Shown here: one piece after another, positions 25,403 through 43,722 of the stretch
Numbering within the stretch: position 1 is the stretch's first letter
How the letters are laid out: every line of letters begins with the position of its first letter
Assembly (NCBI GenBank): GCA_963813815.1
Contig: CAWFAD010000016.1
Location: 416,001 to 480,000, forward strand
Origin: an uncultured bacterium
GTDB taxonomy: Bacteria; Krumholzibacteriota; Krumholzibacteriia; Krumholzibacteriales; Krumholzibacteriaceae
Direction of reading: 5' to 3'
Length of the DNA: 64,000 bases
Translations under genes and position numbers: made by a program
The notes under the pieces: model-generated
Told to the model about the DNA's origin: nothing
Database searches by the model: none
Seen by the model: the letters and a program-made list of their open reading frames with translations, nothing else

Positions 25403-26097
25403 GATCCTTCTCTCCCCCGGCGCGGCTCCGAGGACGGTGTTCCGCCGCCGATGCGGGCCGGCGTTATATCGATGTGAGGAGCGATCTCCCCGGCGAAGCG
25501 GACGAGCGCCCGCTCGGTCTCTTCGATGTTCCCGTTCGCCCCGATCTCCGTCGAAAAACGGACGAAGACGGTCGCCCGCGGCCGCCCGAGAAGCGAGCTC
25601 TTCATCTGACTCCATTTGAGCGCGAACTCGTCCGCGAGGACGCCGTCCGCCGCAAGATACCAGTATAGAACAAATTGCCGCTCGACGCCATTCGAGATGA
25701 GGAGCCTTCCGGCCCTCCAAGCGGCCCCTCCTGCGGCGACCGGGGACCTTCCCTCCTCGAGGATGTTCCAGCCCGATCCCGGGTAGCAGTGTTTGGGCGA
25801 ATGAATCTGGGAGTTCTCATGGGGCGCGGCGAAATACCCGATGAAGAGCCGTATCGGCGGCTCGCCGGCGCGGCGGTACGTGCGGACGAGCGTCGCGTCG
25901 GCTCCGAGAACGTCGAGCGTGTTTTCGTCGAGCGCCTCGTCGTCGGCCGCGTAGCCGGCGATCTCGGGGGGGATGCGCTCGAGCGCCGGGGGCGGCGGCG
26001 CCTCGACGCGGCGATAGCGCATCGTGAAGGTGTACGCGATGAGCGCCGCGAGTAGGGCGATTATCGCCGCGTACGCTGTTTTCTTCCCTGCAACCAT
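25399..26097 (-). CDS. epsI: EpsI-family exosortase-associated protein (DUF3485)
   Basis: N-terminal TM; LDVLGAD...RTY, IRLFIGYF, IHSPKHCYPGSGW, VLYWY, FVRFS. Confidence 0.9.
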   Translation of the reverse strand: MVAGKKTAYAAIIALLAALIAYTFTMRYRRVEAPPPPALERIPPEIAGYAADDEALDENTLDVLGADATLVRTYRRAGEPPIRLFIGYFAAPHENSQIHSPKHCYPGSGWNILEEGRSPVAAGGAAWRAGRLLISNGVERQFVLYWYLAADGVLADEFALKWSQMKSSLLGRPRATVFVRFSTEIGANGNIEETERALVRFAGEIAPHIDITPARIGGGTPSSEPRRGREGS

Positions 26098-26936
26098 GCG
26101 AGCGCGCTCCAGACGACGAGCAGCATGACGAAACCCGTGCCGAACACGATGAGCCCCGAGACTTCGTGAAGGACTCCGTCCGCGAAGGCCGGCCCGGCCA
26201 CGCGGGCTCCGACCGCGGTGAGCGCGAGCCGGATCGCATTGGCGGCGATCGCTATGGGGACGGAGGAAACGGCGAGAATCGCGCGGGCGCCCGCTGCGAG
26301 CCTCGATGCGGCGCAGAGAACGAGCGCGAGCGTCACGAGCGTCATGAGGGAGCGCAGCCCGCTGCACGCCGCGACCACCTCGAACGTATAGTCGGGGAGA
26401 ACGAGGATGTTGCCGCGGCGGATGACCTCGAACCCGATGCCGTGCAGCGCCCCGGCGGCGAGCTTCGCGCTCAGTATCTGCATCGGAAATGTGACCCGGT
26501 AATAGATGATGTAGGGGAGAGGGATCATCAGAAAGAGAAAGAGGAGCGGAAAGGCGAGGGCGCGGACGAACGCCGCGCCCCGCAGCAGAAGCAGAATCCC
26601 GATGAGCATGAGCGGGAGCGAGAGGCGCGCCGCGAAGAGCTCCGAGGCGGCCGTTCCCGCGACGAGAAGCGCGGCCGCGAGGGCGAGAATCATTGCTCCC
26701 GCCGCCGGGGCGCCCTCCCCGGCCGCCGAGCGGAGGATATCGCGTCTTCGCCAAAGGAAGTAGGCCGAGACGAACGGCACCGCGAGCCCGTGCTGGTAGT
26801 TCGGGTCGAGAACGAGCTGCCTCGCGAGCGGAACGAGCACGGGAAGGTAGAGCGCGACAAAAAGCGCCGCCACAACGAACGCCGCGGCGCCCGGCTTCGC
26901 GGGCGGCCCGGCCATCTCTCTCGCTGCTCCGCGCAT
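26061..26936 (-). CDS. Exosortase (EpsH family)
   Basis: DPNYQHG, FPLLFLFLMIPLP, EVVAACSGLRSL (catalytic Cys), ANAIR (Arg), LHEVSG (His). Confidence 0.95.
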   Translation of the reverse strand: MRGAAREMAGPPAKPGAAAFVVAALFVALYLPVLVPLARQLVLDPNYQHGLAVPFVSAYFLWRRRDILRSAAGEGAPAAGAMILALAAALLVAGTAASELFAARLSLPLMLIGILLLLRGAAFVRALAFPLLFLFLMIPLPYIIYYRVTFPMQILSAKLAAGALHGIGFEVIRRGNILVLPDYTFEVVAACSGLRSLMTLVTLALVLCAASRLAAGARAILAVSSVPIAIAANAIRLALTAVGARVAGPAFADGVLHEVSGLIVFGTGFVMLLVVWSALAWLQGRKQRTRR

Positions 26937-27016
26937 GGCGTACCCTCCTCCCCGCCTATTTCTAAACCGCCTGCGCCCATCATACAAGCGAAATGGGGCT
27001 TTGCTGAAGGAACGGC

Positions 27017-27053
27017 AAAAAAAAGAGCGGACGCTGCAGCAAGCGCCCGCTCT
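27017..27053 (-). terminator. Rho-independent terminator after the PEP-CTERM gene
   Basis: Minus strand AGAGCGGGCGC-ttgctgca-GCGTCCGCTCT followed by a T run. Confidence 0.8.
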
Positions 27054-27080
27054 CGCACCAGAATATGGAGAAGGAGTTTC

Positions 27081-27791
27081 TTACTCCTTTTTCCTCCTCA
27101 GTATGGGGACCATGCCGAGGAGTCCGAGACCGAGAAGGCTCAACGTGCCCGGCTCGGGGACCGCGCCGTAGTAGGAAGCGTCGCGCGAGTAGGCGTTCAC
27201 GTACGTCTCGCCGTTCGCGTCGATCCCCACCGCGTCGAAGTGAACCCAATCATAACCGCTCACGATGACGTTGACAAGGATTTCGTCGCCCCACCCGGGG
27301 GTATTGATCGTGCCGTGCGCGTAGTTCAGCGCGTTTACCTGATCGTTGTCGACGCGGCCGAGCTCATAGAACTTGAAGGCTCCCGCGTCGCCGGCCGGCG
27401 AATGGTACTGCAGGGACGGGTTCGCCTGAATGGCGCTCGGAACCGCCGCGCCATACACGTCGAAGCTCAGTATCTCTATGCCGTTGATGTAAATGTTTCC
27501 GCTCTGCCCCTCGGGCGTCGCGATCATGAGCCAGGTGTCGAGATACTCGTAAACCGGCTCGCCCCTGAAGGTGAGAGATCCCCCGCCTTCGCCGCTCGCC
27601 GGATTCCAGTACCCCACTACCTTGAGATCGAAGGTCGAGTTGTGCGTGACCCAGGTCGCATACTCCCGCTGATAAATATGGTAGTAGTCCGAGCCCGTAA
27701 TGTAGGTCTGAAGCCTCGGCACCGATCCCGCGGATACGGCGAGGAGCATTGCGATCGTCATTGTAACTGTCAGTTTAGCAATCGGTTTCAT
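27081..27791 (-). CDS. PEP-CTERM sorted surface protein (resembles choice-of-anchor N domain proteins)
   Basis: Signal peptide; C-terminus AVPEPGTLSLLGLGLLGMVPILRRKKE. VPRLQTYITGS and VHFDA recall choice-of-anchor N (from memory, unverified). Confidence 0.93.
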   Translation of the reverse strand: MKPIAKLTVTMTIAMLLAVSAGSVPRLQTYITGSDYYHIYQREYATWVTHNSTFDLKVVGYWNPASGEGGGSLTFRGEPVYEYLDTWLMIATPEGQSGNIYINGIEILSFDVYGAAVPSAIQANPSLQYHSPAGDAGAFKFYELGRVDNDQVNALNYAHGTINTPGWGDEILVNVIVSGYDWVHFDAVGIDANGETYVNAYSRDASYYGAVPEPGTLSLLGLGLLGMVPILRRKKE

Positions 27792-28349: not shown

Positions 28350-28910
28350 ATGAAAGCTGCGACTATCGTTCTCTTGATTCTTCTCGCGCCGGTCGCTTTG
28401 TTCGCGGCGCCGACGATCGGGGTCTACGCAAACAACTCGACGAGCCTCATGATGTTCGGGCCCCCTCCGTACTCGACGTTCACCGGCTACGTTTTCGGCG
28501 TGGGGCTCAATTGCTTCACGAACGCCGTCGAGTTCGCCGTCCAGCTTCCCGAGGGAATCGTCATGACCGGATGGTCGATCCCGTACGAGAACTCCCTCAC
28601 GCTCGGCGATCCTCTGGCGGGCCTCGCGGTCACGTACTGGCCGCCTCTCAGCACCTTCGATCCGGGCTATAACCTGCTCGCGCAGATTCAGCTCATGGCG
28701 CTGCCGACCGGCGCGTGCCTGTACTACGGCGGCACGAGCCCCTTCAACGCTCCCCTGCGGATCGTGAATCATCCCGGCAGCGGAGCTCTTCGCCAGTCGT
28801 GCTGGCCGGATAACAACCTCGTCAACCTGACCGGGCTCGTCTCGATCATCTGTCCCGAGGAGATCGCGACGGAGGAAACGAGCTGGGGCGCGATCAAGTC
28901 CCTGTTCTAG
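28350..28910 (+). CDS. Secreted protein with C-terminal 'ATEETSWGAIKSLF' motif
   Basis: AAGGAG RBS, Sec signal peptide, beta-rich domain with Cys residues, terminal SWGxIKxLF. Confidence 0.85.
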   Translation: MKAATIVLLILLAPVALFAAPTIGVYANNSTSLMMFGPPPYSTFTGYVFGVGLNCFTNAVEFAVQLPEGIVMTGWSIPYENSLTLGDPLAGLAVTYWPPLSTFDPGYNLLAQIQLMALPTGACLYYGGTSPFNAPLRIVNHPGSGALRQSCWPDNNLVNLTGLVSIICPEEIATEETSWGAIKSLF

Positions 28911-28982
28911 ATTTCGGAGATATCTTTCGCAACGGCGCGGGCCGGATGCTCATCGAGCATCCGGCCCGTTCGCGTTTGGGGG

Positions 28983-29552
28983 CTAAAACTTGATGGGGCG
29001 GGCGGCCCGGAAGGCGGGACGCGACGCGCCGCCCATGCGGGCGCTCTGGCTCAGGCGCCCGAAAGATTTGAGCGCCGGGCGGACGGCGCCTTTCGTCGTA
29101 TGGAACGATTTGGTCCAGTGCAGAGACGAGCTCAGGGAGCGCATCCGGGCGGAAATCTGGCTCAGCCCGGCCTCCGCGGGGGAGGAGAGCATCGGCAAGC
29201 CACGGGTCGGCGTTCCGCGCTCGCGGGTGTTGAGAGACAGGCGCTCGACGCCCGACGCCATCGTGTGCATGAGGCCCGAGGAAGAGCAGAAATCGATGGA
29301 GGACCGTGTCTTCGACCTCGCCGGTTGGATGGCGATCCGTCCTGCGGTCTGAACCTCTGTCGCCCGGCGGCTCTCGGCGCGCGCTCTTTCTCCGTGGGGG
29401 CCGGTCGCGCTTTGCCATTGCGCGTCGCACTCGGCTCCCCGGGCGATGGCCCAGGAGACGAAATCGGCTCGATCGGGCGGGGCCGCGCACGCGGCGTCCG
29501 TGATCTGCGCGGCGAAGAAAAACGCCGCGGCTGCGATGAAAATACTGCGCAT
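28983..29552 (-). CDS. Hypothetical exported protein (uncertain)
   Basis: AGAAGG RBS and hydrophobic N-terminus. The remainder is R/S/A-rich with no recognisable motif. Confidence 0.4.
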   Translation of the reverse strand: MRSIFIAAAAFFFAAQITDAACAAPPDRADFVSWAIARGAECDAQWQSATGPHGERARAESRRATEVQTAGRIAIQPARSKTRSSIDFCSSSGLMHTMASGVERLSLNTRERGTPTRGLPMLSSPAEAGLSQISARMRSLSSSLHWTKSFHTTKGAVRPALKSFGRLSQSARMGGASRPAFRAARPIKF

Positions 29553-29700
29553 CGTTCTACCTTCTATTGAAAAAGATGACGTGAAAAGGCGGATTTAGAC
29601 TGTCGAAAACACTGCGCGGAGAGAAGAAGAGCAAACGAGAAATCCTTGCTACGGTTTAATTGTAGCATGGACGGGGTGGATATGTCAATATGGTGAAACG

Positions 29701-30825
29701 ATGGCGAACGAGCAAACGGCCCATACGCGAGCCCTTCTCATCGGTCCCTTTCCTCCTCCCGTCGGCGGAGATACCGTCCTCACCGCCAACCTGTCGCGGA
29801 GCGATTTCTGGCGAGAGCAGGGAATTGTCCTCGACCTCTTGAACACGAGTGCCGGGGACCGGGTGAGACTGCCCGACGAACGCCTTTCGCCGGGGGACGT
29901 CCTCCGGGGCGCGCGGGTTGTGCTGCGCGCCGCATCGAGGATCGGTCGCCGCGACGTCGTCCTGCTGTGGTGCAACAATCGTTTCGCCGTCACGGCCGGA
30001 CTCGGCGTCATGCTCTGCAGCCGGCTCGGTCGGCGCCCGATTCTCGTCAAGGTGTTCGGAGGCTACCTCGCGGAGCGGATCGCGAGGCTTCCGTACCTCT
30101 GGCGCCGCGCCGCCGTGGCGCTCCTCGGCGGCGCCGAGTGCGTTTTCGCCGAGACGGAGCTCCTCGCCCGCGAGCTCGTCGAGGAGGCGCGGCTCCCCGC
30201 GGATCGCGTAGCGCTCCTCCCCAACTGTCTTCCCCCGGGCGTCGTCGCGCGGGCGCGGTCCGGCCGGAGCTTCACGGGCGCATGCGTTTTCTTCGGGCAG
30301 ATGAAGCGCGAGAAGGGGATATTCGATATCGTCGAGGCCCTCGCGGGGCGGGAGGATTCGACGTGCGATTTTTACGGCCCTCTCGTCGAGCGCGACCGGG
30401 CCGCCTTCCTCGACGCGATCTCAGGGTGCCGGAACCTGCGCTATCGAGGGGTCGCCGAGCCGGGCACGGTGAGCGCCGTGGCCGCCGGATACGACGTTCT
30501 CCTGCTTCCGACGTACCATCCGAGCGAGGGGCATCCGGCGGTCATCCTCGAGGCGTACGCCGCGGGTTTGCCCGTCGTCGCGACGAGGTGGCGGGCGATT
30601 CCGGAGATCGTGCCGGAGGGGAAAACGGGGCTGCTCATCTCCGTCCGTTCTCCGGGAGAAATTCTCGGAGCCCTCGATGCGCTCCGCGCGGATCCCGGCC
30701 GTTACGACGCGATGTGCCGCGCCGCTTCCGAGCTCGTGAAATCGTTTTCGGAAAGCGAGGTCGTCGGAAGGATTCTCGCGCCGCGCGTCGCCGCCGCCGT
30801 CCGCCGGAAGCGGGCTATACGCTGA
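29701..30825 (+). CDS. Glycosyltransferase family 4 (GT-B)
   Basis: LIGPFPPPVGG, FFGQMKREKGI, LLLPTYHPSEGHPAVILEAYAAGLPVVAT. Confidence 0.9.
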   Translation: MANEQTAHTRALLIGPFPPPVGGDTVLTANLSRSDFWREQGIVLDLLNTSAGDRVRLPDERLSPGDVLRGARVVLRAASRIGRRDVVLLWCNNRFAVTAGLGVMLCSRLGRRPILVKVFGGYLAERIARLPYLWRRAAVALLGGAECVFAETELLARELVEEARLPADRVALLPNCLPPGVVARARSGRSFTGACVFFGQMKREKGIFDIVEALAGREDSTCDFYGPLVERDRAAFLDAISGCRNLRYRGVAEPGTVSAVAAGYDVLLLPTYHPSEGHPAVILEAYAAGLPVVATRWRAIPEIVPEGKTGLLISVRSPGEILGALDALRADPGRYDAMCRAASELVKSFSESEVVGRILAPRVAAAVRRKRAIR

Positions 30826-33439
30826 ACCATTTGCTGATCTTGATCATGAAGGTGTCGTCTCCGGCCGTCGAGAGAAGGCGATCGAAGTCGCGGCCGACCT
30901 CAAACTCCCCCCGCTCCTCCTCGAAGTCCGAAGCGCCGCGCGACCAGACGAGATAGAGCGCCGAACCCGGGCTCCATTCCCAGCGAAAAACGAAATTCGA
31001 GCGCATCTCCTTGAAGTTGAAATCGGGGCTCTCTGCCTCGGCGAGGTAGTCGTACGGAGCGAAGCGGCTCGCGTACTCGTCCGCCCGCGGGGAGACGACC
31101 TCGCGGAAGCGGCTGTAGCGCCCGGCCGCGATGAACGGCATTCCGTAGAACTGGAGGCTCATCTCGGGAGTGACCGTGTAGTTGAACCGCGTCGTCACGC
31201 TCGCGACGTCCATGTCGAGACGTGCTACGACGTAGCGGCCGTCGATCTCGTCGACGTACTGCGCGTCGTTCCCGCGAGCCGAATATGCCGCGCCGATGCT
31301 CATCTCGAAGCGGCCGGAGGGGCGGATGGTCACGTACGGCCCGACGGAGTATCCGCCGAACCCCTCGTCGTTTCGGTCGTATCCGCCGTCGAGCCCGGCC
31401 ATGAACGCCTTGCGATTGTCCGTGTACGCGCCGAACCACGAGTTCCAGCCGCCGGGCACGAGCGCGAGCGGACCTCCGCGGGTCAGGCTCACGGTCAAGT
31501 GCTCCTGCGAGCGCTCGATGCCCGCGTACCCTCCCCAGTTGTTCGTAAGGCTGAACGAGCCGTTCATGTTGCCGGCGAAGCCGACCATGTCGCCGCCGTA
31601 GCTGTATGCGCGCCAGAGGTTCCAATTGAGACTCACGTTTCTCAACGCCTTCCACGGCTGGGGGAGGTGGTAGCCGGCCCAGGCGACGCCGAGCGCCTCG
31701 TCCGCTTCCTGCATGTAGCCGAGATCGTTCACCTCGAAGCCGGGGGAGCGCGACATGAAACCGAGAAGAAAGTTCCAGCGCTTGCCCCCGCAGCGCCCGC
31801 CGTCGATGACGGTCGCGTATCCGCCGAGGGAGGTCCGCGAGGGGTCGTACTCGACGTAGTCGGCGTCGGGACGCTGAAAGTAGCGCGCGGAGGAGGTTTG
31901 GGCCTCCGCGATCGCCTCGGCGCTTCCCTCGATCCAGCTCCCGAGGACGCGCCCGTTCACCGCGTACTCTTCGTCGTGCCACCGGTGCGAGAAGTCGACG
32001 CCGCCCGTCACGGCCATGCGGTTGAGGAACTCGAGGTCGGGGCTCGACAGGTCGCGGATCACGCTCGTGATCATGCCGCCGACGGTGCTCCGGCCGCCGT
32101 TCAGATCCTTCTTGGCGCTGGCGAGGAGGTAGTTGGTCCTGGGTTCGACGGCGACCCCGATTTGCTCGCCGCCCGGGAGCTCGACCGTCGCCGTCTCCTT
32201 GTCGGTCACGGCCTCGAGGATGCCGATGGAGACTCCGCTCGAGGTCTTGCCCGCTATCTTGGCCGCGCCGAGGATCGTCGTAAACTGCGGCGCGTCATCG
32301 TGGAGTCCGTCCGTGTCGATGAAGCGTTCGGAATCGAGCGCCGAGAACTGGGGCGAACGGCCGATCCGCCGGGAGTAGAAGAGCCGCTCCGCGTCGCTGT
32401 CGCCGAACATGAGGCGGTATTGAAAAATATTGGCCCCTTCCATGAAGAATGGGCGCTTCTCCTCGAAGTACGATTCGTAGGCGGTGAGATTGAACTCGGA
32501 CGGATCCTGCTCGACCTGTCCGAAGTCGGGGTTGATCGTCATGTCGAGCGTGATGTCGGTCGTGAGGCGATACTTGAGATCGGTTCCGAGGCGGCCGCTC
32601 CAGCGCGGATCGTCCCGGAACGGATCGTCTCCGGCGTCGCCGTAACGGTCGACGCTCCCGACGGCATAGGGAAGAAGCTCGAACTTCGCCGGAGAGGGGA
32701 TGCGCTCGAGACCCTCGAGCCGGCCGAAGAGCGACACGAACTGATTCGCGCTCCTCGGCACCGGGTACAGGAACGAGAGCTCGTCCATGCGGCATATCTG
32801 GCGCGCCGCTTGAAATCCCCATCGGTGCGTTTCGCGGTTGTTCGCGAACCTGAGCTGGCTCCAGGGAACGGCGAATTCCGCCGACCATCCGTCGGCGTCG
32901 ATGCGCGTGCCCACGTCCCAGACCGCGTCCCAGTTGCCGTCCTCCTCCGTATCGTTGAAATAGAAGATATCCACTTTCGTGCCCGCGGCGTTCACCCCGA
33001 AGAGAAACGCCGAGCGCTTGTCGTCGTAGCTGTCGAATCCGACGTAGAGCCAGTCGGAAGGCATGTCGTTGTCCCTGCGCGCGAGGTGCCCGACGATCGC
33101 CCCCGGGGTTCTGTCGTACGCTTTCATGCCGACGTAGATGCATGCGTCGTCATAGACGACCCGAACGGTCGTTCTCTCCGTCGCGGGACGGCCGTCATAG
33201 GGCTCGTGCTGGATGAACCCCTCGGCGGCCGGCGCCCGCTCCCAGTCTCTCTCGTCGAGGGCGCCGTCGACTCGTATGCCGCCGTTCACGGTTCGGACCG
33301 CCGTGACGGGGCTCATCGCGTTCCCCCTCGCGTCCGCTGCGGTCGAGTCCCGGGACGTCTCAGCCCGAAGAGCGCCGGCCGCGGAGGCGGCCGCGACGAG
33401 GAAAGCCGCGATGAGGGCGGCAGCTGCGGGGTTTCTCAT
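30815..33439 (-). CDS. CBM9-like + DUF5916 outer-membrane protein
   Basis: IRVDGALDERDW, TTVRVVYDD, WDAVW, WSAEFAVPWSQLRF, TINPDFGQVEQD, EEKRPFFMEG, FYSRRIG; terminal KISKWFSV. Confidence 0.88.
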   Translation of the reverse strand: MRNPAAAALIAAFLVAAASAAGALRAETSRDSTAADARGNAMSPVTAVRTVNGGIRVDGALDERDWERAPAAEGFIQHEPYDGRPATERTTVRVVYDDACIYVGMKAYDRTPGAIVGHLARRDNDMPSDWLYVGFDSYDDKRSAFLFGVNAAGTKVDIFYFNDTEEDGNWDAVWDVGTRIDADGWSAEFAVPWSQLRFANNRETHRWGFQAARQICRMDELSFLYPVPRSANQFVSLFGRLEGLERIPSPAKFELLPYAVGSVDRYGDAGDDPFRDDPRWSGRLGTDLKYRLTTDITLDMTINPDFGQVEQDPSEFNLTAYESYFEEKRPFFMEGANIFQYRLMFGDSDAERLFYSRRIGRSPQFSALDSERFIDTDGLHDDAPQFTTILGAAKIAGKTSSGVSIGILEAVTDKETATVELPGGEQIGVAVEPRTNYLLASAKKDLNGGRSTVGGMITSVIRDLSSPDLEFLNRMAVTGGVDFSHRWHDEEYAVNGRVLGSWIEGSAEAIAEAQTSSARYFQRPDADYVEYDPSRTSLGGYATVIDGGRCGGKRWNFLLGFMSRSPGFEVNDLGYMQEADEALGVAWAGYHLPQPWKALRNVSLNWNLWRAYSYGGDMVGFAGNMNGSFSLTNNWGGYAGIERSQEHLTVSLTRGGPLALVPGGWNSWFGAYTDNRKAFMAGLDGGYDRNDEGFGGYSVGPYVTIRPSGRFEMSIGAAYSARGNDAQYVDEIDGRYVVARLDMDVASVTTRFNYTVTPEMSLQFYGMPFIAAGRYSRFREVVSPRADEYASRFAPYDYLAEAESPDFNFKEMRSNFVFRWEWSPGSALYLVWSRGASDFEEERGEFEVGRDFDRLLSTAGDDTFMIKISKWFSV

Positions 33440-33611
33440 GAATGCACCTTTCGGCTCGCTCGATTGTGGAGCCCGGCCAAGTCCCCTCCTTATTGTCTCT
33501 AACGGCGAAACGACTCTCCGGGTTGCAGAAAAATCGAGCTCCAAGCGAAATGACGAGGCGCGCCGGATATCGAGTTGCCCGGCGCGCCGGGGGCGGCGTA
33601 TAATGCGCGCC

Positions 33612-35504
33612 ATGAAACGCAGGGTTCGTTGCGCCGCGCGGTATCTTTTTGCCGCCGCTCTCGTTGCGGCGGGAGCCGCCGCGGCGCGGGGGAGCGAATC
33701 CCCCTCGATCGATAGCGAGCAAACGGGCGAGCCGTGGTGGATGCGGCAGACCGCTCTCGAGCGGGACGGAGCAATGGGCTCTCTCGCCGGGCGGCCATGG
33801 TGGAGGCAGGCGCTCGCGCTCCGCGCCGGAGAGAGCTTCGTCGTCCCGGCGCCGGGCGAGGCGAGGGGGCGCATGCTGGTCCGCCGCGAGCGGCTTCCCG
33901 CATCCGGCGCTCATTCCGGGGATGCCATCGTCTGGATCATCGACGATGACGGCGACGGAAGCGTCGCCAGGGGGGGCGACCGCGACGAGGATTGCTACGT
34001 GGTCGATTACGGGTGCGACGGCTCGGTCGACCGCATGGTCGATTACATCGATAACGACGGCGACCGCGACATGGACGAGGTCGATATCCGCTACTTCACC
34101 GAAGGGCGTCTCAACTGGGCCTGGTTCGGCGAGGACGTCGACGACGACAACGCCGTCCGGAACATCGTCGACTACGAGTGCGGCGACGAGTTTCGCGGGG
34201 ACCCGTACGGCGACAATCTGTTGTACTTGAACAAGTACAACCCCGCGAAAGGCGAATGGACGCCCCTTTCCGAGTGTCCCTTCGCCTTCTACGACACGGA
34301 CGGCGACGGATTCAGCGAGACGGTCGTGCGCGTGAGCGTCGCGCCGCAGGGACGCGACTCGAACAAAGCCCCGGATTACGCGAACAGCTCGTTCCACCTT
34401 CCCTGGGACCCGTCCCTCGAGAACGCCGCCGTCGTCAACATCCGGTACAGCTTCGACGTCGATCGCGGCAGCTCCCGGACGACGCCGCTCCACTATGATT
34501 TCGGGTTCAACCTCGTCGGATCGGCGCCGTACCGTTTCCCCGGGATGGTTCGCGACAATCCGAAACGGCGCCCACCCCGGCGGACGATCGCGATTCCGTG
34601 GAAAGACGTGCGCGCCGTGGCGGACGGATGGCGCGCGGATGAGACGGGTTTTTCATGGAACGAGAACGTGGACGAGACGGTGGCGAACGGGGCCGCTCCG
34701 GAGGACGCGTACGATTATCGCTGGGAAGGCGTGTTCTGGATGTGGGAGCGGCGTTTCATGCCCAACACGGGCGGACCGTGCCAGAAGTGGAACATGCGTC
34801 GCGAATGGAGAGGCAAGCCTTCCGGCTCGCGCGAGCTCTACTGGAGCGGAGTCGATCAGCGGATCCACCTTCTGGGAGCCGAGGAGGGCTGGATCGAAAT
34901 CGGACATTTCGGAGGCATGGGAGCCGTCGGCGAGGTGCGGATGTACGACACCGACGGGAACGGCTTTTTCGATCGTTGGGAGGTGTACCTCGAGGACCGC
35001 GAGCAGCCGGTGCGGGTCACGACCGTCCGGGATGAGCGCGCGAGGCGCATCGACTCCGCCCCCGATCGATTGACCGCCTTCTATGTCGACGATGCGCTGC
35101 CGCGGGCGATCGCCGGACGCCGCAAGCTCATGAGGGCGATGGGCGCACGGCGGGCCTTTGCGATGCCGGAGGGGCTCGAGCGCGCCATGGAGGCGGGGCC
35201 GGCGGGCTATCGCCGGTACGCGATGGATGTCGCCTGCGAGCTCCAGTATCAGGATTTCCGGGCCTCGCTCCTGCGTCAGGCGAACGAGGTTTTGCGGAAG
35301 GAGCGCGACACGCCGCGCTTTCGCTTCATGGGCGATCTCCTCCGCCCCCGGAAATCGACGGCGAAAGGAATGGAGCGCGGCAAGGACAGTCAGGACGCCT
35401 GGAAGCTCATGCGGACGCTCGCCGATCTCGACGCGGCCTACGGCCGCGGCGATACGGAGCGCGCCTGCGCCGCCATCGGCGAGATCGATCGAATGTGGAG
35501 GTGA
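33612..35504 (+). CDS. Secreted hypothetical protein rich in DxDxDG Ca-binding-type motifs
   Basis: Signal peptide; DDDGDG, DYGCDG, DNDGDRD, DTDGDG, DTDGNG. Confidence 0.75.
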   Translation: MKRRVRCAARYLFAAALVAAGAAAARGSESPSIDSEQTGEPWWMRQTALERDGAMGSLAGRPWWRQALALRAGESFVVPAPGEARGRMLVRRERLPASGAHSGDAIVWIIDDDGDGSVARGGDRDEDCYVVDYGCDGSVDRMVDYIDNDGDRDMDEVDIRYFTEGRLNWAWFGEDVDDDNAVRNIVDYECGDEFRGDPYGDNLLYLNKYNPAKGEWTPLSECPFAFYDTDGDGFSETVVRVSVAPQGRDSNKAPDYANSSFHLPWDPSLENAAVVNIRYSFDVDRGSSRTTPLHYDFGFNLVGSAPYRFPGMVRDNPKRRPPRRTIAIPWKDVRAVADGWRADETGFSWNENVDETVANGAAPEDAYDYRWEGVFWMWERRFMPNTGGPCQKWNMRREWRGKPSGSRELYWSGVDQRIHLLGAEEGWIEIGHFGGMGAVGEVRMYDTDGNGFFDRWEVYLEDREQPVRVTTVRDERARRIDSAPDRLTAFYVDDALPRAIAGRRKLMRAMGARRAFAMPEGLERAMEAGPAGYRRYAMDVACELQYQDFRASLLRQANEVLRKERDTPRFRFMGDLLRPRKSTAKGMERGKDSQDAWKLMRTLADLDAAYGRGDTERACAAIGEIDRMWR

Positions 35505-36748
35505 CCGACATCAGGAAATGCATTCCAGTACTCGCGGCCTTCGGCCTCGCGCTCGCCGCGGGGGCTCCGCTCATCGGTTGCGGCGAGCGGGAAACGCCCC
35601 AGAGGGGCATCGCCGCGGGCGACAGCGCGGTCGCGGCCGGAGGGGCCGCGCGAAGCGGAATCGGGGATTCCCGCCGGCCGAGCGCGGCGCGCCGGGATAC
35701 GGTGTATTTCTTCATGTCGCGGCGCGGGCACGACGCGAATTCCGGCTCGCGGGAGCGGCCGGCGGCGACGCTCGAGCGCATACACGAGCTGGTCTCGCGA
35801 GCGTCGCCGGAAGCGGACGTGGTCGTCAAGATCCGAAGCGACGCGGGCGTCTACTACGATCAGTCCGTCGTCTGGACGTACTACCGCCCCGAATATTCGA
35901 TCACCATCGAGGCCGATCCGCCCGGGAAGAACGCGCGATTCGAGGCCGGAGAGACGCCCCCCACGAGGCCGTTCTTCGGGCTGAGCGCCATGCGCGGGGA
36001 GCCCACGAACATCACCCTGCGGGGCTTGACGGTCAGAAACTACATCAGCCGGGCGGTGCTGTTTCTGGGGGACCGGGAAACCCGCGGCAACTGGAACGGC
36101 CGAAACTCGATCGAGCGGTGCGTGTTCGAGAATATCGGCAACGCGCGGTCGCCGGCGCAACCGATCGTGTATTCGGCGGTCGGCGTGGTGAACTCGAGAA
36201 ACAACAGAATCGTCGGGTGCACTTTCGTCGACATCAAGAATCACACGCTCGCGAACTTCACGCAGGACGCGAGCGGCGCCGAGCGCGAGCTGCCGCCCGA
36301 GGTCATGGAGAGCGCGCTGAAGCTGCGCGCGATCGGCCCCGGCAGCAATCCCAATATCCCGATCGTCGGCGTTTATTTCGCGCATTACAGCGACTCGAAC
36401 GCCGTCGAAGGCTGCGAGTTCAAGCGCATCAAGGGGGATCCGATACGGATACGGGACGACTCGAACGGCAACGTGATCGCGAACAACCGGTTCGAGCTCG
36501 CGGGCTGGAACGCGATCGTCTCGACGTGGTATTGCGATTCGCCGCGGCAGAACTGCGTGAAGGAGTTCGGCTTCGAGAAGATATCGATGGGGAACGCCAT
36601 TCTGAACAACACGGTGTCGGGAAACTGGCGGGGAGGCATGCCGCGGATCTTCTTCGACATGCGCGCTCCGGAAGGCGTCTCGGGCCGCGAGCCGCCGAGC
36701 CCGCTCGTCATGAGAATCGAAGGCAACGTGCTCGACGTGTACCGGTGA
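35495..36748 (+). CDS. Right-handed parallel beta-helix lipoprotein
   Basis: Lipobox LIGC; GHDANSGSRERPAATL; repeats NSIERCVFENIG, NNRIVGCTF, NAVEGCEF, NVIANNRF. Overlaps the upstream stop. Confidence 0.75.
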   Translation: MEVTDIRKCIPVLAAFGLALAAGAPLIGCGERETPQRGIAAGDSAVAAGGAARSGIGDSRRPSAARRDTVYFFMSRRGHDANSGSRERPAATLERIHELVSRASPEADVVVKIRSDAGVYYDQSVVWTYYRPEYSITIEADPPGKNARFEAGETPPTRPFFGLSAMRGEPTNITLRGLTVRNYISRAVLFLGDRETRGNWNGRNSIERCVFENIGNARSPAQPIVYSAVGVVNSRNNRIVGCTFVDIKNHTLANFTQDASGAERELPPEVMESALKLRAIGPGSNPNIPIVGVYFAHYSDSNAVEGCEFKRIKGDPIRIRDDSNGNVIANNRFELAGWNAIVSTWYCDSPRQNCVKEFGFEKISMGNAILNNTVSGNWRGGMPRIFFDMRAPEGVSGREPPSPLVMRIEGNVLDVYR

Positions 36749-36845
36749 CGCCGCGGGGCCGGCCGTCTTGACACGCGATGCAGCGTGCTTCATGGTCACG
36801 TACGGGTCATATCGTCGGCTGAAAAACAAGGGGAGGTGACTGCTC

Positions 36846-37672
36846 ATGAAGAAGCTCTCGTTGTTCGGAATGCTGGTCCTGCTCGTCGCGGCATTCTGGA
36901 CGATCGCGTCCGTTCGCGACGCCGAGGCGCAAAAGCGCGGAGGCAAGAGCAGCGGCAAGGCCGCGAGTCAGAAGACGGCCGAACAGACGATGAAGAAGGC
37001 GGAGCAGAAAACGGGGGATGCGGCCGAAGAGAAGGGAAAGGCCGCGAAGAAGGCGTACCAGCCGAAAAAGCTCACGAGCGAGGAGATGAAGCAGTGGGAG
37101 GGCGGAACCCCGCCCGGCTGGTCGATGGGTACGAAGAAGGGTTGGGGCGAGGGCGCCACGCCTCCCGGAGAGATGAAAAAGGGCGGCGAGCCCGGCGGCC
37201 AGATGAAGCAGGCCGGCTCCGCGCAGCAGCAGGAGAAGCTCGATCAGGCGAAGGAGCGCATCCGCACCCGGATTCGCATGCACGATGGCAAGGGCGAGAC
37301 GAAGCGCATAGAGAGCCAGAACGAGTACGAGGGAAGCGCCGTCCGCTCGGTCGAGGGAGCCGCCCGCATGGGCGTTCCCGTCGAGCACGCGGAGGCGGCC
37401 GTTCAGAAGGGGATCGACCGGGGCATGACCGGCGAGGAAATCGAGAAGGTGACACGGGCCATGGCCTACGGAGCGGACAAGGGGACCGATTACAATAAGC
37501 TCGGCGCCTTCATGGACGGGAAGATGGCGGAGGGAGAGCGCGGGGACGAGCTGGCCAGGTCAATCTACCAGGAGATCGACGAGGGGGGCGCACGCAGCAG
37601 CAGGAGCCCGTGAAAGAGCAGACGCAGACGAAGAAGGAACCCTGGTACAAGCGTCTCTTCAGTCGGGGCTAG
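36846..37672 (+). CDS. Secreted K/E/Q-rich protein with PPGW motif (probable 1-bp deletion in the G run at 37583-37588)
   Basis: GGGGAGG RBS, signal peptide, TPPGWSMGTKKGW..PPG. One extra G extends the ORF to ...QQQEPVKEQTQTKKEPWYKRLFSRG* at 37672; as read it stops at 37613. Confidence 0.7.
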
Positions 37673-37717
37673 GTATCGAGCGCAGCGCGCGCCGGCGGAT
37701 TCGGGATCTACGAAACG

Positions 37718-37748
37718 AAAGGCGCCTCCCCGAGGGGAGGCGCCTTTT
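37718..37748. terminator. Bidirectional Rho-independent terminator
   Basis: AAAGGCGCCTCCC-cgag-GGGAGGCGCCTTTT between convergent genes. Confidence 0.85.
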
Positions 37749-37755
37749 CATTATT

Positions 37756-39284
37756 TCAGCCGAGACTTCCGATTTCCCGTTCGACCTCGTCGAGGATTTC
37801 GCACGACCGGACGAGCTCCTTCATGCGCGTGTGATCGGGATAGAGCGGGCGATCGATGTCCAGAAACTCGACGTGCCGGCGGATCACCTCTTTGGCCTTC
37901 GTTGTACCGCGGCCGAACTTGAACTCGCGGAAATCGAGCGCCTGCGCCGCCGCCATGAACTCGATGCCGAGCACGCCGATAGGCGTTGTCGAGAATCTGG
38001 AAGTTCTTGATGGCCGTGTTCATGCCCATCGAGACGAAATCCTCCTGATCGGCCGCGGCCGGAATCGACTGGATCGAGGCCGGCATCGAGAGGATCCGCT
38101 GCTCGACGATCTGCATGTCCGCGGTGTACTGGCTCAGCATCATGCCCGGAGAACATGCCCGGCGCCCTTGGTCAGAAAGGCCGGGAGGCCGACGTTCAGG
38201 GCGGGATGATTGAGCCGGTTCATGCGCCGCTCGCTGAGGACGCTCACCATGCGTGATCGGCCGCGCTGATCATGTCCATCGGGAGCGACACCGGCGATCC
38301 CTGGAAGTTGGCTCCGGAGATCTGCAGGTTGCGCTCGGGGAAGAAGATCGGGTTGTCGCCGACGCCGTTGAGCTCGATTTCGACCTGCGAGCGGGCCCAG
38401 CGCACGGCGTCGTGCGCCGCGCCGATGACCTGCGGGGTCGAGCGCATCGAGTATGCGTCCTGCACCTTGGTCTTGGCCTTGCCGGCGAGGACGTCTCCGC
38501 CCTCGACGCATTTCAGAATGGCGTTCGCGGAGCGGATGGCGCCCGCGAAGCCCCGGACCTCGTGGAGGAGCGGCGTGTACGGTTTCATGTTCGCGATGAG
38601 CGCCTCGAGCGTCATCGCCGCGGCGATCTCGGCCTGCTTGAGCCAGCGGTTGGTGTCGTAGAGCATGAGGGCGCTCATCGACGTGAGGAGGTTCGAGCCG
38701 TTGATGGCCGCGAGTCCGTCGCGCGCCTCGAGCCCGGGAACGGGGATGCCGGCCCGCTTCATCGCCTCGGCCCCCGGAAGAAGCTCGCCCTCGTAGTAAG
38801 CCTGTCCTTCGCCGAGAAGCAGCAGCGCGATCTGCGACATCGGAGCGAGATCGCCGGACGCGCCGACGGAGCCCTTCTGACATACGAACGGCGTCACGCC
38901 CTTGTTGAGCATCAGGACGTACGTTTCGGCGATCACCGGGCGGTTGCCGGAGTTGCCCTTCGAGAGAACGTTGATGCGGGAGGTCATCGCGGCCCGGACG
39001 TACTCGATCGGGGCCGGGTCGCCGATGCCCGCGGCGTGGTTGTAGATGAGGTAGCTCTGGAAGTCCTTGACCTGGTCGTCGTTCAGGACGACCTCGGAGA
39101 ACTCGCCGATGCCGGTATTGACGCCGTACATGATCTCGTGGGCGACGATTTTCTTCTCGAGCATCGCGCGGCATGCCGTCATGCGCTCGATCGCCTCGCG
39201 GGCGATTTCGACCTTTTCGCCGTGCCGGGCGACCTGAACGAGCTTCTCGAGTGTGAGCGTTTTGCCGTCGAGGATGATGGCCAA
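37756..39284 (-). CDS. hutH: Histidine ammonia-lyase/aromatic amino-acid lyase (about 5 apparent single-base insertions at 37980-38260)
   Basis: AAGGAGG RBS with TTG start; YGVNTGIG, GSVGASGDLAP (MIO), INGS, VQDAYSMRSTPQV, DNP. SERR and QEDFVSMG continue in other frames. Confidence 0.88.
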
Positions 39285-39418
39285 GGCGACCTCCTTGTAT
39301 CAGTTTATTTTACAATACGTTAAGTTTGAGCGCTTCTTGCGGGAGCGCGGGCTCAGGCACAATATTGATAATGAATTCGCGCCGATTTGTCCACCGAAAA
39401 CGCCCCTTTCGGCTCGGC

Positions 39419-40294
39419 TCAGAGCCCGCGCATCCACTCGTCGCGCAGGTATCGCTCCGGCTCGGCGAGAGCGCGGTCGATCTCGGCGAGGAGGCGGTCG
39501 CGGTCCCCCACGAGCGTGCCGGCGAGAGGGAGATAGTTCGATGCGTGGTTGCTCCGGAAGATGCAACCGTCCGCTTCGATCCCGGCGAGGAGCTCGCGCA
39601 GCTCCATCGCGTCGTCCACCGGGCCGTTGTACTCGAAATCCGGTCCCATCGCTTCCCGGAACTCCCCTTCGTAGGGACCGAGCATGAGCGTGAGGGCCGA
39701 GAGGAACCGCGGCCGGATGCGGTTCACGAGCCTCGCCGTTTCGCGGGCGTGGCGGAGGCTCCCCTTTTTGCCCGCGAGGCCGAGAATGACCGTGACGGAG
39801 AGCTTGAGCCCCGCCTCCTGCGCCCGCAGGCATCCCTCGGCCATCTCGTCGGGGGTGGCGTTCTTGTGAATCTTCTCGAGGAGCTCCGGGTCGCCCGTCT
39901 CGACGCCGTAGTAGATGATCTTGAGCCCCCGCTCGGCGATGAGGCGCATCTCGGGGACCGTTTTTCTCAGCAGATTCGGGGGCGAGGCGTAGGCCGAGAC
40001 GCGCTGCAGCTTCGGGAACGACGCAGAGAGGTAGTCGAGAATGCGGACGAGAAGGCGCGCCGGCAGCACGAAGGCGTCTCCGTCGGCGAGAAACACTCGC
40101 CGCGTTTCGGGGGCCATCGCGGCCGCCTCGTCGATATCGGCCCTCAGGCGATCCCACGGCCTCACCCGGAACGGCTTGTCGCGGTACATGTAGCAGAACG
40201 CGCAGGTGTTGTTCGAGCAGCCGATGGTCGCCTGGAGAATGAGCGAAGGGGCCTCGCTCGGGGGCCGGTAGACCGGTTCGATGTATTCGATCAT
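39419..40294 (-). CDS. Radical SAM protein of unknown function
   Basis: YRPPSEAPSLILQATIGCSNNTCAFCYMY, FLADGDA, YYGVETGD, FRSNHASNYL. Confidence 0.9.
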   Translation of the reverse strand: MIEYIEPVYRPPSEAPSLILQATIGCSNNTCAFCYMYRDKPFRVRPWDRLRADIDEAAAMAPETRRVFLADGDAFVLPARLLVRILDYLSASFPKLQRVSAYASPPNLLRKTVPEMRLIAERGLKIIYYGVETGDPELLEKIHKNATPDEMAEGCLRAQEAGLKLSVTVILGLAGKKGSLRHARETARLVNRIRPRFLSALTLMLGPYEGEFREAMGPDFEYNGPVDDAMELRELLAGIEADGCIFRSNHASNYLPLAGTLVGDRDRLLAEIDRALAEPERYLRDEWMRGL

Positions 40295-40513
40295 GAGCGC
40301 CTCTCCCGCCGCGCGCAGCGACGCGCCGGCGGTATGGTAGTGAAAGCGCGGGGGCATTTCAAGTTGAAAGCCGGCGGCGGATTGCGATAGAGTCCTCCCC
40401 GGCGAGCCCGCGCGCGAACGGCCGAGGGCGGCCGTTCGCGGAGCGGCGCCGCGCCCGCGCCGGTCGCGCGGCGGGCGGAGGCGTATCGATTCCTGCAGGA
40501 CGGGAGGATGTGT

Positions 40514-42811
40514 ATGGCGGCGAAGCGGAAAGTGCTGTGGATAACCCTCGCGATTCTCGTCTCGGTCTTCATCGCGGCGATCGTCGCGGTGCGTGTCGCG
40601 CTCGCGCCGGACAAGCTCAAGGCGATCGTGCTGCCGCGCGTCGAAAAGATGGTGGGCGCGGAGGTGGCGATCGGCGACATCAAAATCAATTTTCCGTTCG
40701 GCTTCGGCGTGGACGTCGCGGATCTCCGGTTCAACAAGACGCTTCCCGATACGACCGTCCTCGATTTCTCCTCCGAGACGGTGACGGTCCGCGCCTCGCT
40801 TCTCTCGCTCCTCAGGCGAAAGCCGGAGATCTCGTCCGCCTCGGTGCACGGCGGCTCCGTCGCGCTCGTGAACGTCAACAAGGCCCGCGAGACGCGGCTC
40901 CGCGGTCTCGAGGCGCTCGTCTCCGTGAAACCCTCGGGCGATCTCTTCGTCCTGCGAGCGAAGGCGCGCGCCGATTCGGTCTTGGTTTCGAGGCCGGGCA
41001 TGCCGCCGGCGATCCTGCTCGAATCGGTCGAGCTCGACGGCGAGTTCGAGACGGACCGCGGGCTCTCGAGGCTCGCGATCAAGGACGCGCGCCTTCTCTG
41101 GGCGGAGCTCGTTTCCGCGCGGATCGTGGGGGAGGTGACGGACGTCAAGACGGCGCCGCGTCTCGCCCTTTCGATCGAAGGGGACGAGAGGCCGATCGGC
41201 CCGGTGCTGGCGGCGATTCGAACGTTCCGGATGGACGAGCTCTCCCCGCCCGCGACGGCCGCGCCGAAGGCGGCGGGGCAGCAGCCTCCGCCCGAGATAA
41301 CCGGCGGCACGCTCCGGTTCACCGCCACAATCGAGGGGCTCGCGCGCGAGCCGCTCGGCATGAACATCGCCTTCGAGGCGAACCTCGACGACGCGTCGCT
41401 CCGCGCCGGGGATCTCGCCGCGATCGAAAAGATCGCCGCGCGGGTCAAGGGCGCGGGGAACGCCTTTGCGTGGAAGAGCCTCATGCCGAGCGCGGCGAGG
41501 CCTCTGACGCTCGAGCAGATCACGCTCTCGTGGCAGGCGATCGAGCTCGAGGGAACGATCGACGTCGAGGGCGGCGAGCTTCTCCTGCGCGCCGCGAGCG
41601 CGCCGCCGGATTCGGCGATCGGCGCGTCGGCCGCGGCCCCGCTCAGGATTTCCGCCCTCAAGGCGAAGGCGGAGATCTCGGGCACCGGCGTCAAGAGCGT
41701 GAGCGGGGAGTTTCGCATCGGAGCGAGCCCGTTCGCCTTCAGCGGCTCTCTCGCGAACGTTCTGCCGGCCGCCGCCGAGCTCGCCCTCGTCGCCCAGAAG
41801 CTGGCCTCCGGCGGGGACGGAAGGCCCGTCGCCGATCTCGGACCCTATCTCGACAACATGGTGAACGCGCCGGTCGTGCGGATCGAGGTGTCGGGACGCT
41901 CGTTCGACGCGCAGCCATACCAGCCTCACCGGGGAGCGAAAAAGGAAGCCGCGGGAGTCGCCTCCGCGGCGCCGAAGCCCGCGGACGGCGGGGCGGGAGC
42001 GGTTCTGCTCCTCAAGAACACCGTCTTTACGGCCAAGCTCGATTCGGTCGTCACCCGCGAGGCGATTCTCACCGCCGTCGAGGCGAAGGGGACGATCCGC
42101 GACGGGAGAATCCGCATCGATCCCGCCTCTTTCCGGTATGCCGGTGGAAAGGGCACGGCGACGGTCGCGGGCGACGTCCGGAAGAGGGGTCGCGTGGAGA
42201 GCTCGATCGATTTCGCGCTCGATGGCGTCGAGGCCGGCGAGGCGCTCGGCAGGCTCTTCTCGCTCGGATCGCTCGTTCGGGGCCGCTTCAGCTTCGACTC
42301 GAAGGGGAGCTTCGCGATGGGGGAGGGTCTCGATCCCCTTCTGTCGCTCACGGCCGCCGGCTCCGCGTTCTCGAACAAGGGATCGGTGAGCTTCGAGAAA
42401 TACCTCGGCTCCCTCTCGACGATTCAGAACTTCGACGCCGCGCCGCTCACGAACTTCGATTTCACGGAGTGGAAGGGGTTTTTCCACGTGCAGGACGGGC
42501 GTTTCGTCACGGACGACTGGAAGATCGCGTCAACGGCGGGGGCGTGGGCGATCAAGGGGTCGTTCGGGCTCGACGGGTCGCTCGACTACGTCGTGCACCT
42601 CTCGGTTCCGCCGGTCGTGCAGCAGCGCATGAAGAACATCGACGCCTACAAGAGCGCCCTCGACCTCATGCGCGACTCGGGCGGAAACCTCATTCTCGAT
42701 ATCCGCGTCACCGGCAACTCGAAGCATCCCTCCGCCATGCTCGACCTCACGAAGGCGAAGAGCAAGGCGCAGGACAAGGTCCTCGAAGGGTTCAAGAAGC
42801 TTCTTCGGTAG
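40514..42811 (+). CDS. AsmA-family protein
   Basis: GGAGG RBS, N-terminal TM anchor, ASLLSLLRRKPEI, long beta-rich body, AsmA-like C-terminus (GSFGLDGSLDY, IRVTGNSKHP). Confidence 0.8.
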   Translation: MAAKRKVLWITLAILVSVFIAAIVAVRVALAPDKLKAIVLPRVEKMVGAEVAIGDIKINFPFGFGVDVADLRFNKTLPDTTVLDFSSETVTVRASLLSLLRRKPEISSASVHGGSVALVNVNKARETRLRGLEALVSVKPSGDLFVLRAKARADSVLVSRPGMPPAILLESVELDGEFETDRGLSRLAIKDARLLWAELVSARIVGEVTDVKTAPRLALSIEGDERPIGPVLAAIRTFRMDELSPPATAAPKAAGQQPPPEITGGTLRFTATIEGLAREPLGMNIAFEANLDDASLRAGDLAAIEKIAARVKGAGNAFAWKSLMPSAARPLTLEQITLSWQAIELEGTIDVEGGELLLRAASAPPDSAIGASAAAPLRISALKAKAEISGTGVKSVSGEFRIGASPFAFSGSLANVLPAAAELALVAQKLASGGDGRPVADLGPYLDNMVNAPVVRIEVSGRSFDAQPYQPHRGAKKEAAGVASAAPKPADGGAGAVLLLKNTVFTAKLDSVVTREAILTAVEAKGTIRDGRIRIDPASFRYAGGKGTATVAGDVRKRGRVESSIDFALDGVEAGEALGRLFSLGSLVRGRFSFDSKGSFAMGEGLDPLLSLTAAGSAFSNKGSVSFEKYLGSLSTIQNFDAAPLTNFDFTEWKGFFHVQDGRFVTDDWKIASTAGAWAIKGSFGLDGSLDYVVHLSVPPVVQQRMKNIDAYKSALDLMRDSGGNLILDIRVTGNSKHPSAMLDLTKAKSKAQDKVLEGFKKLLR

Positions 42812-42814
42812 GGT

Positions 42815-42865
42815 AAAAAAAAGACCCCTCGGGATGCGCGGCCGCGCCGCGCGATCCCGAGGGGC
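42815..42865 (-). terminator. Rho-independent terminator
   Basis: CCCCTCGGGAT...ATCCCGAGGGG stem with an A8 tract on its left (U-tract for the minus-strand gene). Confidence 0.75.
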
Positions 42866-42894
42866 AAACGATCAGCCGCTCAGGGCTGCGAGAG

Positions 42895-43722
42895 TCAGTA
42901 GTTGATCGCCGTTTCCCGTCCGTGGACCGGAATCAGGGGATACCCTTCGTCACAGGAAGTGATGCCAAGGGATCCGCCCGGGTTCGCCTCGAACTTGAAC
43001 GACAGATTCTGCAGATCCTCGAGCAGGAGGATGTCGAAGCTGGCGACCATGATCGGCGCGGGGCCGTACTGCGGACGGTTGAACGCGATCGCCATGCCGC
43101 TGAAGAGGTCGCCGAGCGTGATGGCGACGTAATCGGGCGTCGTCGCGCCGGTCACCGAGTACTCGGTGCCAGCTTCGAGATCGGCGCCGTCGACGTCCGC
43201 GATGCGCAGCTTGAACTCGCACGCCGTCGCGCAGGCCACTTCGCTCTCATCGAGCATGATGTACATGTAGCACGTGAGCCACGTCCACGACGCGGTCGTC
43301 GCGTCGCACACGGTCGCCTCGCCGTCGAAGTACACCGCGAGAGACGGATTCGACGGAACCGCGACCGAGAGCGAGAACTCGCGCTCGGCCGACTTCGGCG
43401 TCTCGGAGCTGTCCTCGACGCGCACGGAGAAGTCGTAGTCGCCGGTGTTCATGCACACGCCGATGAGTCTGCCGTCGCTCTGGAGCTCGAGGCCGTCGGG
43501 GAGGCTGCTGCCTTCCGCGAGCGACCAGGTATACGGAGCGGCGCCGCCCACGGCTTCCATCATGAGATTGTAGGGAGCGCACGTGTAACCGGTTGTGACC
43601 GCCGCGGTCAGGACGCCGAACTCCTCGGCGGCCGGCGGCGGGGTCGTGGTCGAATCCTCGGAACATGCGGAGAGCATGGAGAGGAGGAAAAGACCCGTAA
43701 ACAGAGCGAAAACCTTCCTCAT
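42895..43722 (-). CDS. Lipoprotein with a putative Ig (He_PIG-like) domain and a C-terminal domain homologous to the 28350 protein
   Basis: AAGGAGG RBS; lipobox LSAC; GGAAPYTWSL..GS.LPDGLEL..DGRL.G; C-domain PSLAVYF...ACEF...TLGDLFSGMAI. Confidence 0.8.
   Translation of the reverse strand: MRKVFALFTGLFLLSMLSACSEDSTTTPPPAAEEFGVLTAAVTTGYTCAPYNLMMEAVGGAAPYTWSLAEGSSLPDGLELQSDGRLIGVCMNTGDYDFSVRVEDSSETPKSAEREFSLSVAVPSNPSLAVYFDGEATVCDATTASWTWLTCYMYIMLDESEVACATACEFKLRIADVDGADLEAGTEYSVTGATTPDYVAITLGDLFSGMAIAFNRPQYGPAPIMVASFDILLLEDLQNLSFKFEANPGGSLGITSCDEGYPLIPVHGRETAINY

Follow-up and report, generated by a model that had tools for sequence, protein, structure and literature searches.

The last 15 residues of a small secreted protein, arranged around the motif WGxIK, very probably constitute an export or surface route in an uncultured bacterium that probably belongs to the Krumholzibacteriota. 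The protein, of 186 amino acids, is encoded at 28350..28910 (+) of the window, the term used here for the whole stretch of 64,000 nucleotides analysed, positions 416001-480000 of contig C16, and comprises a Sec signal (approximately residues 1-19), a stand-alone cohesin-fold domain (residues 20-169) and the tail. In this genome, the domain is found with three different endings, namely the WGxIK tail, a lipid anchor and a C-terminal domain (CTD) for type IX secretion (T9SS). Since the alternatives swapped with the tail are all export or surface routes, the same kind of role is assigned to it. The initial annotation of this DNA had recognized one domain with two anchors; the sharing of the domain is borne out, while the number of endings rises to three.

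The tail spans residues 172-186 (28863..28907, +), the C-terminus of the protein reading ATEETSWGAIKSLF, and consists of a linker, I/ATEE, resembling a PorU cleavage site, followed by the putative helix SWGAIKSLF, with W179, G180 and K183 being the invariant tail residues. The same domain closes a lipoprotein of 275 amino acids encoded at 42895..43722 (-), which presents the lipobox LSAC, acidic residues after Cys20, a He_PIG Ig domain (residues 40-120, 43363..43605, -, E 2.9e-8) and the cohesin-like domain (residues 123-275, 42898..43356, -) homologous to that of the 28350..28910 protein, without any tail. Both reading frames lie where the initial annotation had placed them, the lipoprotein ending directly after the domain as it described. 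Direct comparison of the 186- and 275-residue proteins by BLASTP produced a weak match (E 0.004), on its own too weak to establish homology. A profile of eight tailed domains, with their tails removed and the lipoprotein excluded, retrieved the lipoprotein with E 5.7e-9 among 35,481 six-frame segments, and HHalign comparison of both families gave a probability of 98.6 and E 5.9e-16 over 135 columns; every block formerly aligned by eye is in register. The lipoprotein is present, mostly as a single copy, in 44 out of 61 relatives, being found with this query within one order only, and the 29 orthologues examined all have the lipobox, acidic residues after the Cys and no tail.

The AlphaFold2 model of the 28350..28910 protein (pLDDT 91.7) displays a beta-sandwich and, behind it, a helix of low confidence at residues 176-185 (pLDDT 59-66), which we read as not packed on the domain in the model. 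Foldseek and a wide structural search placed cohesins at the top, the first 18 rows all being cohesin entries and the best match being cohesin 2vo8 (Z 13.5, rmsd 2.3 over 123 residues), and the prediction for the shared domain is a cohesin fold, a nine-stranded beta-sandwich. Nine tailed genes carry it in this genome, making it the largest tailed cargo family, and it also occurs in two lipoproteins and in a single protein ending in a T9SS CTD. One of these nine genes is split over two frames (L006:5776-6205, contig C9:18776-19205), reflecting either a frameshift or an assembly error. The second lipoprotein, of 195 amino acids (contig C5:109036-109623, -), consists of the cohesin-like domain alone, also without the tail.

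At seven loci, a conserved secreted protein of 220 amino acids precedes two to five tailed cohesin-like genes. Such operons are found at L006:1536-7933 (contig C9) as well as at L034-L037 and L040, and at L006 and L040 a C25/PorU-like gene with a FlgD domain follows the tailed cluster. The 220-residue protein ends in what we take to be a dockerin-like motif, for which there was no Pfam match, and the arrangement is a candidate cohesin-dockerin system with its dedicated sortase.

Tails were delineated over this whole genome, where 22 of 23 six-frame matches to the pattern [ST]WG.[IVLM]K lie 3-6 residues before a stop and a position matrix places 24 terminal matches above a score gap. One match to a relaxed pattern, on contig C13, was spurious and was dropped. 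After removal of their tails, the 24 tailed open reading frames sort into ten families and one fragment, with beta-helix, lamin-tail and temptin-like domains among their cargos. According to a crude hydrophobicity rule, 21 of the 23 tailed called genes encode a Sec signal, against 574 of 2171 genes (p 8e-11), and the remaining two show signal peptides by eye; the co-occurrence for which the initial annotation proposed a test is observed. Tailed proteins are small, with a median of 199 residues and a maximum of 378 versus a median of 768 for CTD proteins, and the longest of 159 complete tailed proteins reaches 617 residues. The logo of 216 tails, several positions of which are biased by the search pattern, reads [VTSI][PAGS][VTA]E-x-[ST][ST]-W-G-x-I-K-[SA][LM][YF]R-stop, with only 7-11 residues after the Trp. 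No C-terminal transmembrane segment was detected in tailed proteins, the maximum hydrophobicity of any 19-residue window within their last 30 residues being 1.26, in agreement with the non-transmembrane character initially attributed to the tail. None of 120 tails matched Pfam or NCBIfam (June 2026) models, those for CTD, PEP-CTERM and IPTL-CTERM included, and the tail profile had no match among PDB chains. A description of the WGxIK motif was not found in the literature searched, most subscription journals being outside its coverage, so that an earlier description is possible.

Replacement of the tail by other anchors is visible in several families. The cohesin-like domain carries a CTD also at L025-L028 and L031. 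For 262 tailed cargos, 58 homologues without the tail were compared: a CTD closes 19 of them and PEP-CTERM one, four score as lipoproteins, and the other 34 have none of these. The clearest pair consists of tandem NHL-repeat paralogues (L235), one with the tail and the other with the CTD, which are 67% identical over 272 amino acids and diverge just past the domain (KFG-DSIV/STMAT-TWG versus KFG-QATQT/GIADE-CTD), with a PorU-like site right behind it in both versions. Within the window, a large protein at 10209..14768 (+) ends in a T9SS type A CTD (TIGR04183 at window 14511-14756), and its middle region is 34% identical over 343 amino acids to tailed beta-helix-type cargos (E 9e-32); on this sequence evidence, it represents a further tail/CTD swap. 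Neighbouring paralogues at L095, with the tail and with PEP-CTERM, are 65% identical over 175 amino acids. The proposal that the tail is an export or surface element is thus sustained, by its presence on unrelated Sec-signal proteins and by its swaps with T9SS CTD, PEP-CTERM and lipidation, and none of the contrary findings named beforehand (no similarity between the domains; a motif rare, internal, cytoplasmic or restricted to a single family) was encountered.

The PEP-CTERM swap, whose junction reads PPVPEP versus PPVPTE, would be compatible with the tail being a truncated PEP-CTERM/IPTL-CTERM signal processed by exosortase. IPTL-CTERM, the consensus of which includes a WG dipeptide, is also a weak Atlas neighbour of the tail (0.79), and an exosortase operon lies alongside in the window. 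We nonetheless consider this explanation very improbable, since the tail lacks a transmembrane helix and none of the 120 tails matches the corresponding models. The candidate processing enzyme, the exosortase at 26061..26987 (-), was rejected, PF09721 being present in no more than 64 of the 151 genomes that have the tail, and in 1 of 68 in the largest family (f4), which largely refutes such a role. The PEP-CTERM choice-of-anchor N protein at 27081..27791 (-) is encoded divergently from the tailed gene and is regarded as context, outside the pathway of the tail. Window positions 25399-27791 (-) contain the sole clear PEP-CTERM gene of the genome, its exosortase and an EpsI-like gene; the PEP-CTERM/exosortase arrangement divergent from a tailed gene is kept as well at L017, L019 and L020.

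The tail is widespread beyond this genome. When no stop was required, the DNA pattern matched in all 151 genomes of the host phylum, with 1-68 copies each and approximately 2,670 matches versus 3 for the reversed pattern. Scanning of a genome collection provided at least 136 stretches, those listed with a name being mostly from Eisenbacteria or Krumholzibacteriota and a few from Latescibacterota or Gemmatimonadota. In metagenomes, again without the stop requirement, 88 of 116 distinct matches lie within 10 residues of a stop, and a second form of the tail, AVxPxxKLATTWGxIK, was recovered; ten proteins with this form led to seven clusters, four of them with Poribacteria names. Three matches on viral contigs, outside called genes, were treated as chance. 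Searching 1.84 billion representatives with the tail profile identified 1,248 proteins (clusters at 50% identity); among the 150 top-scoring ones, the motif lies no more than 10 residues from the end in 145.

In the phylum Zixibacteria, 13 of 41 genomes match, and at the ten loci fetched (L391-L400) the tail is always on one conserved secreted protein of 140 amino acids, possibly an ancestral or housekeeping substrate. The gene just upstream resembles what we take to be the redox regulator rex, and the 140-residue protein is weakly similar to a tailed protein from Latescibacterota (E 8e-5). In Poribacteria the tail can be as short as 5-6 residues and can stop at the Lys. These data bear on whether the tail is a plain amphipathic helix lying at a membrane interface without any dedicated receptor, as its hydrophobic moment (0.29-0.71) and the helical spacing of its W, I, L and Y/F residues, accompanied by K/R, would allow. 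We deem this improbable, considering that (i) only some ten residues are available, and even fewer in Poribacteria, (ii) the near-invariance of W-G-x-I-K across phyla points to recognition by a protein, and (iii) the conserved acidic linker would be left unexplained.

Latescibacterota have a conserved tailed gene of 150-180 amino acids (TWGKIKELF type), found directly after a CsgG/FlgT-like gene at seven of the eight loci holding it (L382-L385, L387, L388 and L390). This neighbourhood, the limited size of the cargos and the lack of sequence likeness to any CTD model would suit a signal for a separate, new route of export across the outer membrane, which would only happen to occur alongside T9SS. 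Such a route appears unlikely, if marginally less so than the membrane helix: the CsgG/FlgT-like gene was not found in 61 host-phylum genomes, in a search that had no positive control, nor by profile in this genome; clustering of 630 proteins neighbouring tailed genes disclosed no recurring transporter family; and the linker resembles a PorU site. The CsgG/FlgT-like neighbour was accordingly set aside as tail machinery, being lineage-limited.

The components with which the tail keeps company are rather those of a T9SS-like system. This genome encodes SprA, a PorU above cut-off adjoining a PorV-family gene, nine PorV-family matches, four C25 proteins and 39 type A CTDs. SprA is present in 150 of the 151 tail-bearing genomes of the host phylum, and PorU-like proteins in 47 of the 50 genomes to which tails had led. 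In two of the three PorU-negative ones, tail counts are close to those of the reversed control (11 vs 5 and 11 vs 10), while the third, of 2.0 Mb, has 38 tails and nine PorV-family matches. In Latescibacterota, once WA variants and any matches that start with TGA or AGR had been set apart, WG tails accompany full PorU in 22 of 32 genomes and are absent from all 19 genomes without it; inclusion of the WA variants changes these counts to 25 of 32 and 3 of 19. Those 19 genomes (within G224-G266) keep a C25 paralogue of ~1,500-2,000 amino acids and few CTD-like candidates, which in terms of gene content appears as a reduced T9SS-like system.

In this genome, an operon of PorU and PorV lies on contig C13:6-15776, with a gene for a CTD protein next in line, then a match resembling SprA and a gene resembling BamA. 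Each of five other PorV-family genes, at loci on contigs C6, C7 and C12, stands behind a gene with a CTD, which suggests that carriers and cargos form dedicated pairs. A threshold of 1e-40 proved too strict for collecting PorV loci.

The linker provides a second connection. PorU cleavage sites have been mapped at PT/ATEQ, DD/SVED and GT/AVEA, with the motif x/(GSA)(VLI) (Table 2 of PMC4560394), and the first residues of the tail match this published sortase site at the level of sequence. In this genome, 20 of 24 tails have [GSA][VLIT][EDAQ] at positions -6 to -4, against a 2% background, and over 216 tails the PorU motif is present in 90 in its strict form and in 159 in its relaxed form. Type A CTDs, moreover, have a near-invariant Lys close to their C-terminus (PMC10994853), a feature paralleled by the invariant Lys of the tail.

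On these grounds, we give balanced chances to the tail being a 15-residue T9SS-type signal for small cargo, which would replace the CTD of 80-100 residues in targeting proteins to the SprA/PorV-family/PorU machinery. Cargos would first be exported by Sec, their signal peptides being visible in the sequence. The WGxIK helix might then dock on a translocon receptor or carrier through its W, I, aromatic residue and invariant K, SprA would serve as the cargo's passage across the outer membrane, and PorU or a paralogue could cut the x/[AGSP][VT]E linker, as the motif match suggests, and attach or release the cargo. The cell surface might here become coated with small adaptor modules, as the largest cargo family is cohesin-like, together with lipid-anchored and CTD-exported copies of the same domain. 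The initial annotation had envisaged undescribed machinery for the tail; that machinery is probably not wholly new, the evidence pointing to the SprA/PorV/PorU set.

Several observations weigh against a T9SS-type signal. Known CTDs, as characterized in PMC10994853, are folded seven-stranded sandwiches recognised by shape, which a ten-residue helix cannot mimic, so another receptor or binding mode would be required. The majority of untailed homologues, 34 of 58, have none of the anchors considered, although some are truncated. Pro occupies the presumed P1' position in 35% of the 216 tails, and with the tail linker profile CTD linkers outscore other windows (p 5e-7) but shuffled linkers only weakly (p 0.04). 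Co-occurrence mostly reflects shared ancestry, given that SprA and PorU are present almost throughout these phyla; the 19 PorU-negative Latescibacterota are probably one clade, their split then counting as one event and not as p 6e-7; and ten PorU-positive genomes of that phylum have no WG tail. The strict Bacteroidota PorV model exceeded its cut-off in none of 151 genomes, and GldM, the only motor component searched, and PorP were not found in this genome, the controls for these searches being silent as well. Complex prediction for the tail with the PorV adjoining PorU scored 0.00, without controls, which is neutral either way.

The distribution of the motif within proteins is a further difficulty. 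In other genomes, 11 of 159 tailed proteins look lipidated, ~9 of them convincingly and mostly in one family, and in this genome the absence of lipoboxes from 21 tailed proteins is not significant (p 0.26), for which reason the strict exclusion of lipoboxes put forward at first does not hold as a rule. The lipoprotein-rich family (L090-L092, L112-L113, proteins P0231-P0360) bears the motif in two to four tandem copies, internally behind duplicated domains, or at the N-terminus of the mature protein, with the motif at both ends in some members. Such copies fit a cleaved terminal signal poorly and are explained by a docking helix; being lipidated as well as repeated, they indicate that the tail is a portable docking helix, and no strict alternative to a lipid anchor.

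The tail might accordingly remain uncleaved and act as a docking peptide, in the manner of a minimal dockerin, holding small proteins non-covalently on a scaffold or surface protein (e.g. cohesin-fold modules), with export by hitch-hiking or none at all. Repeated, internal and N-terminal copies, and their occurrence on lipoproteins, suggest avidity over cleavage; in the model, the helix stands away from the domain; and cohesin-fold proteins are abundant, one of them being a conserved lipoprotein suited to anchoring. This lipoprotein was, however, found with our query within a single order, and at seven loci the cohesin-like genes are already paired with a co-operonic gene presumed dockerin-like, without Pfam match. 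Docking would also leave unexplained the PorU-type linker and the missing WG tails of PorU-negative Latescibacterota, and we view it as unlikely, though clearly ahead of the other alternatives discussed.

A broader picture, to which we give slightly less than balanced chances, is that in Krumholzibacteriota, Eisenbacteria, Latescibacterota, Zixibacteria and Poribacteria thousands of small folded proteins would be addressed by a helical peptide signal with its own receptor and exported via a motor-divergent T9SS-like translocon (or a separate channel), with attachment by sortase and a dockerin-addressed cohesin-like coat. T9SS signals in the literature consulted are all folded domains, and a signal of 15 residues, if true, would make a new signal class, offering insight into T9SS-like machinery outside Bacteroidota and a much smaller tag for secretion or display. 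Mechanism aside, the motif marks a large unannotated exported proteome, and it bears on how the surface is built in phyla known mostly from metagenome-assembled genomes. In one survey, the complete T9SS is reported only from Bacteroidetes among the genomes of the year 2016 (PMC4793230).

Compared with known systems, the tail would work like a CTD yet belongs to neither the CTD nor the PEP-/IPTL-CTERM family. As with the T9SS type A CTD (TIGR04183/FlgD-Ig), it is C-terminal, is found on Sec-signal proteins and on the same cargos, and shares the upstream linker motif, a conserved Lys near the end and co-occurrence with SprA, PorV-family proteins and PorU. On the contrary, the CTD is a folded seven-stranded sandwich of ~70-100 residues, whereas the tail has ~15 residues, is helical, serves small cargos, can be repeated or N-terminal, and matches no CTD model. 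With PEP-CTERM and IPTL-CTERM it has in common being a short C-terminal tag on many unrelated secreted proteins, with a direct swap at L095, but it has no transmembrane helix or basic cluster and does not track exosortase. The acidic residues that all 29 lipoprotein orthologues have after the Cys recall the Bacteroidetes lipoprotein export signal and are consistent with a predicted surface exposure, although they do not reproduce exactly the K-(D/E)2 or Q-A-(D/E)2 consensus given in PMC5080379. The shared domain is predicted to resemble cohesin modules (PDB 2vo8, 2xdh) in fold, while its sequence identity to them is 7-15%, it has no Pfam cohesin match, and dockerin binding is conjecture. Finally, unlike in scaffoldins, the cohesin-like modules are here stand-alone proteins.

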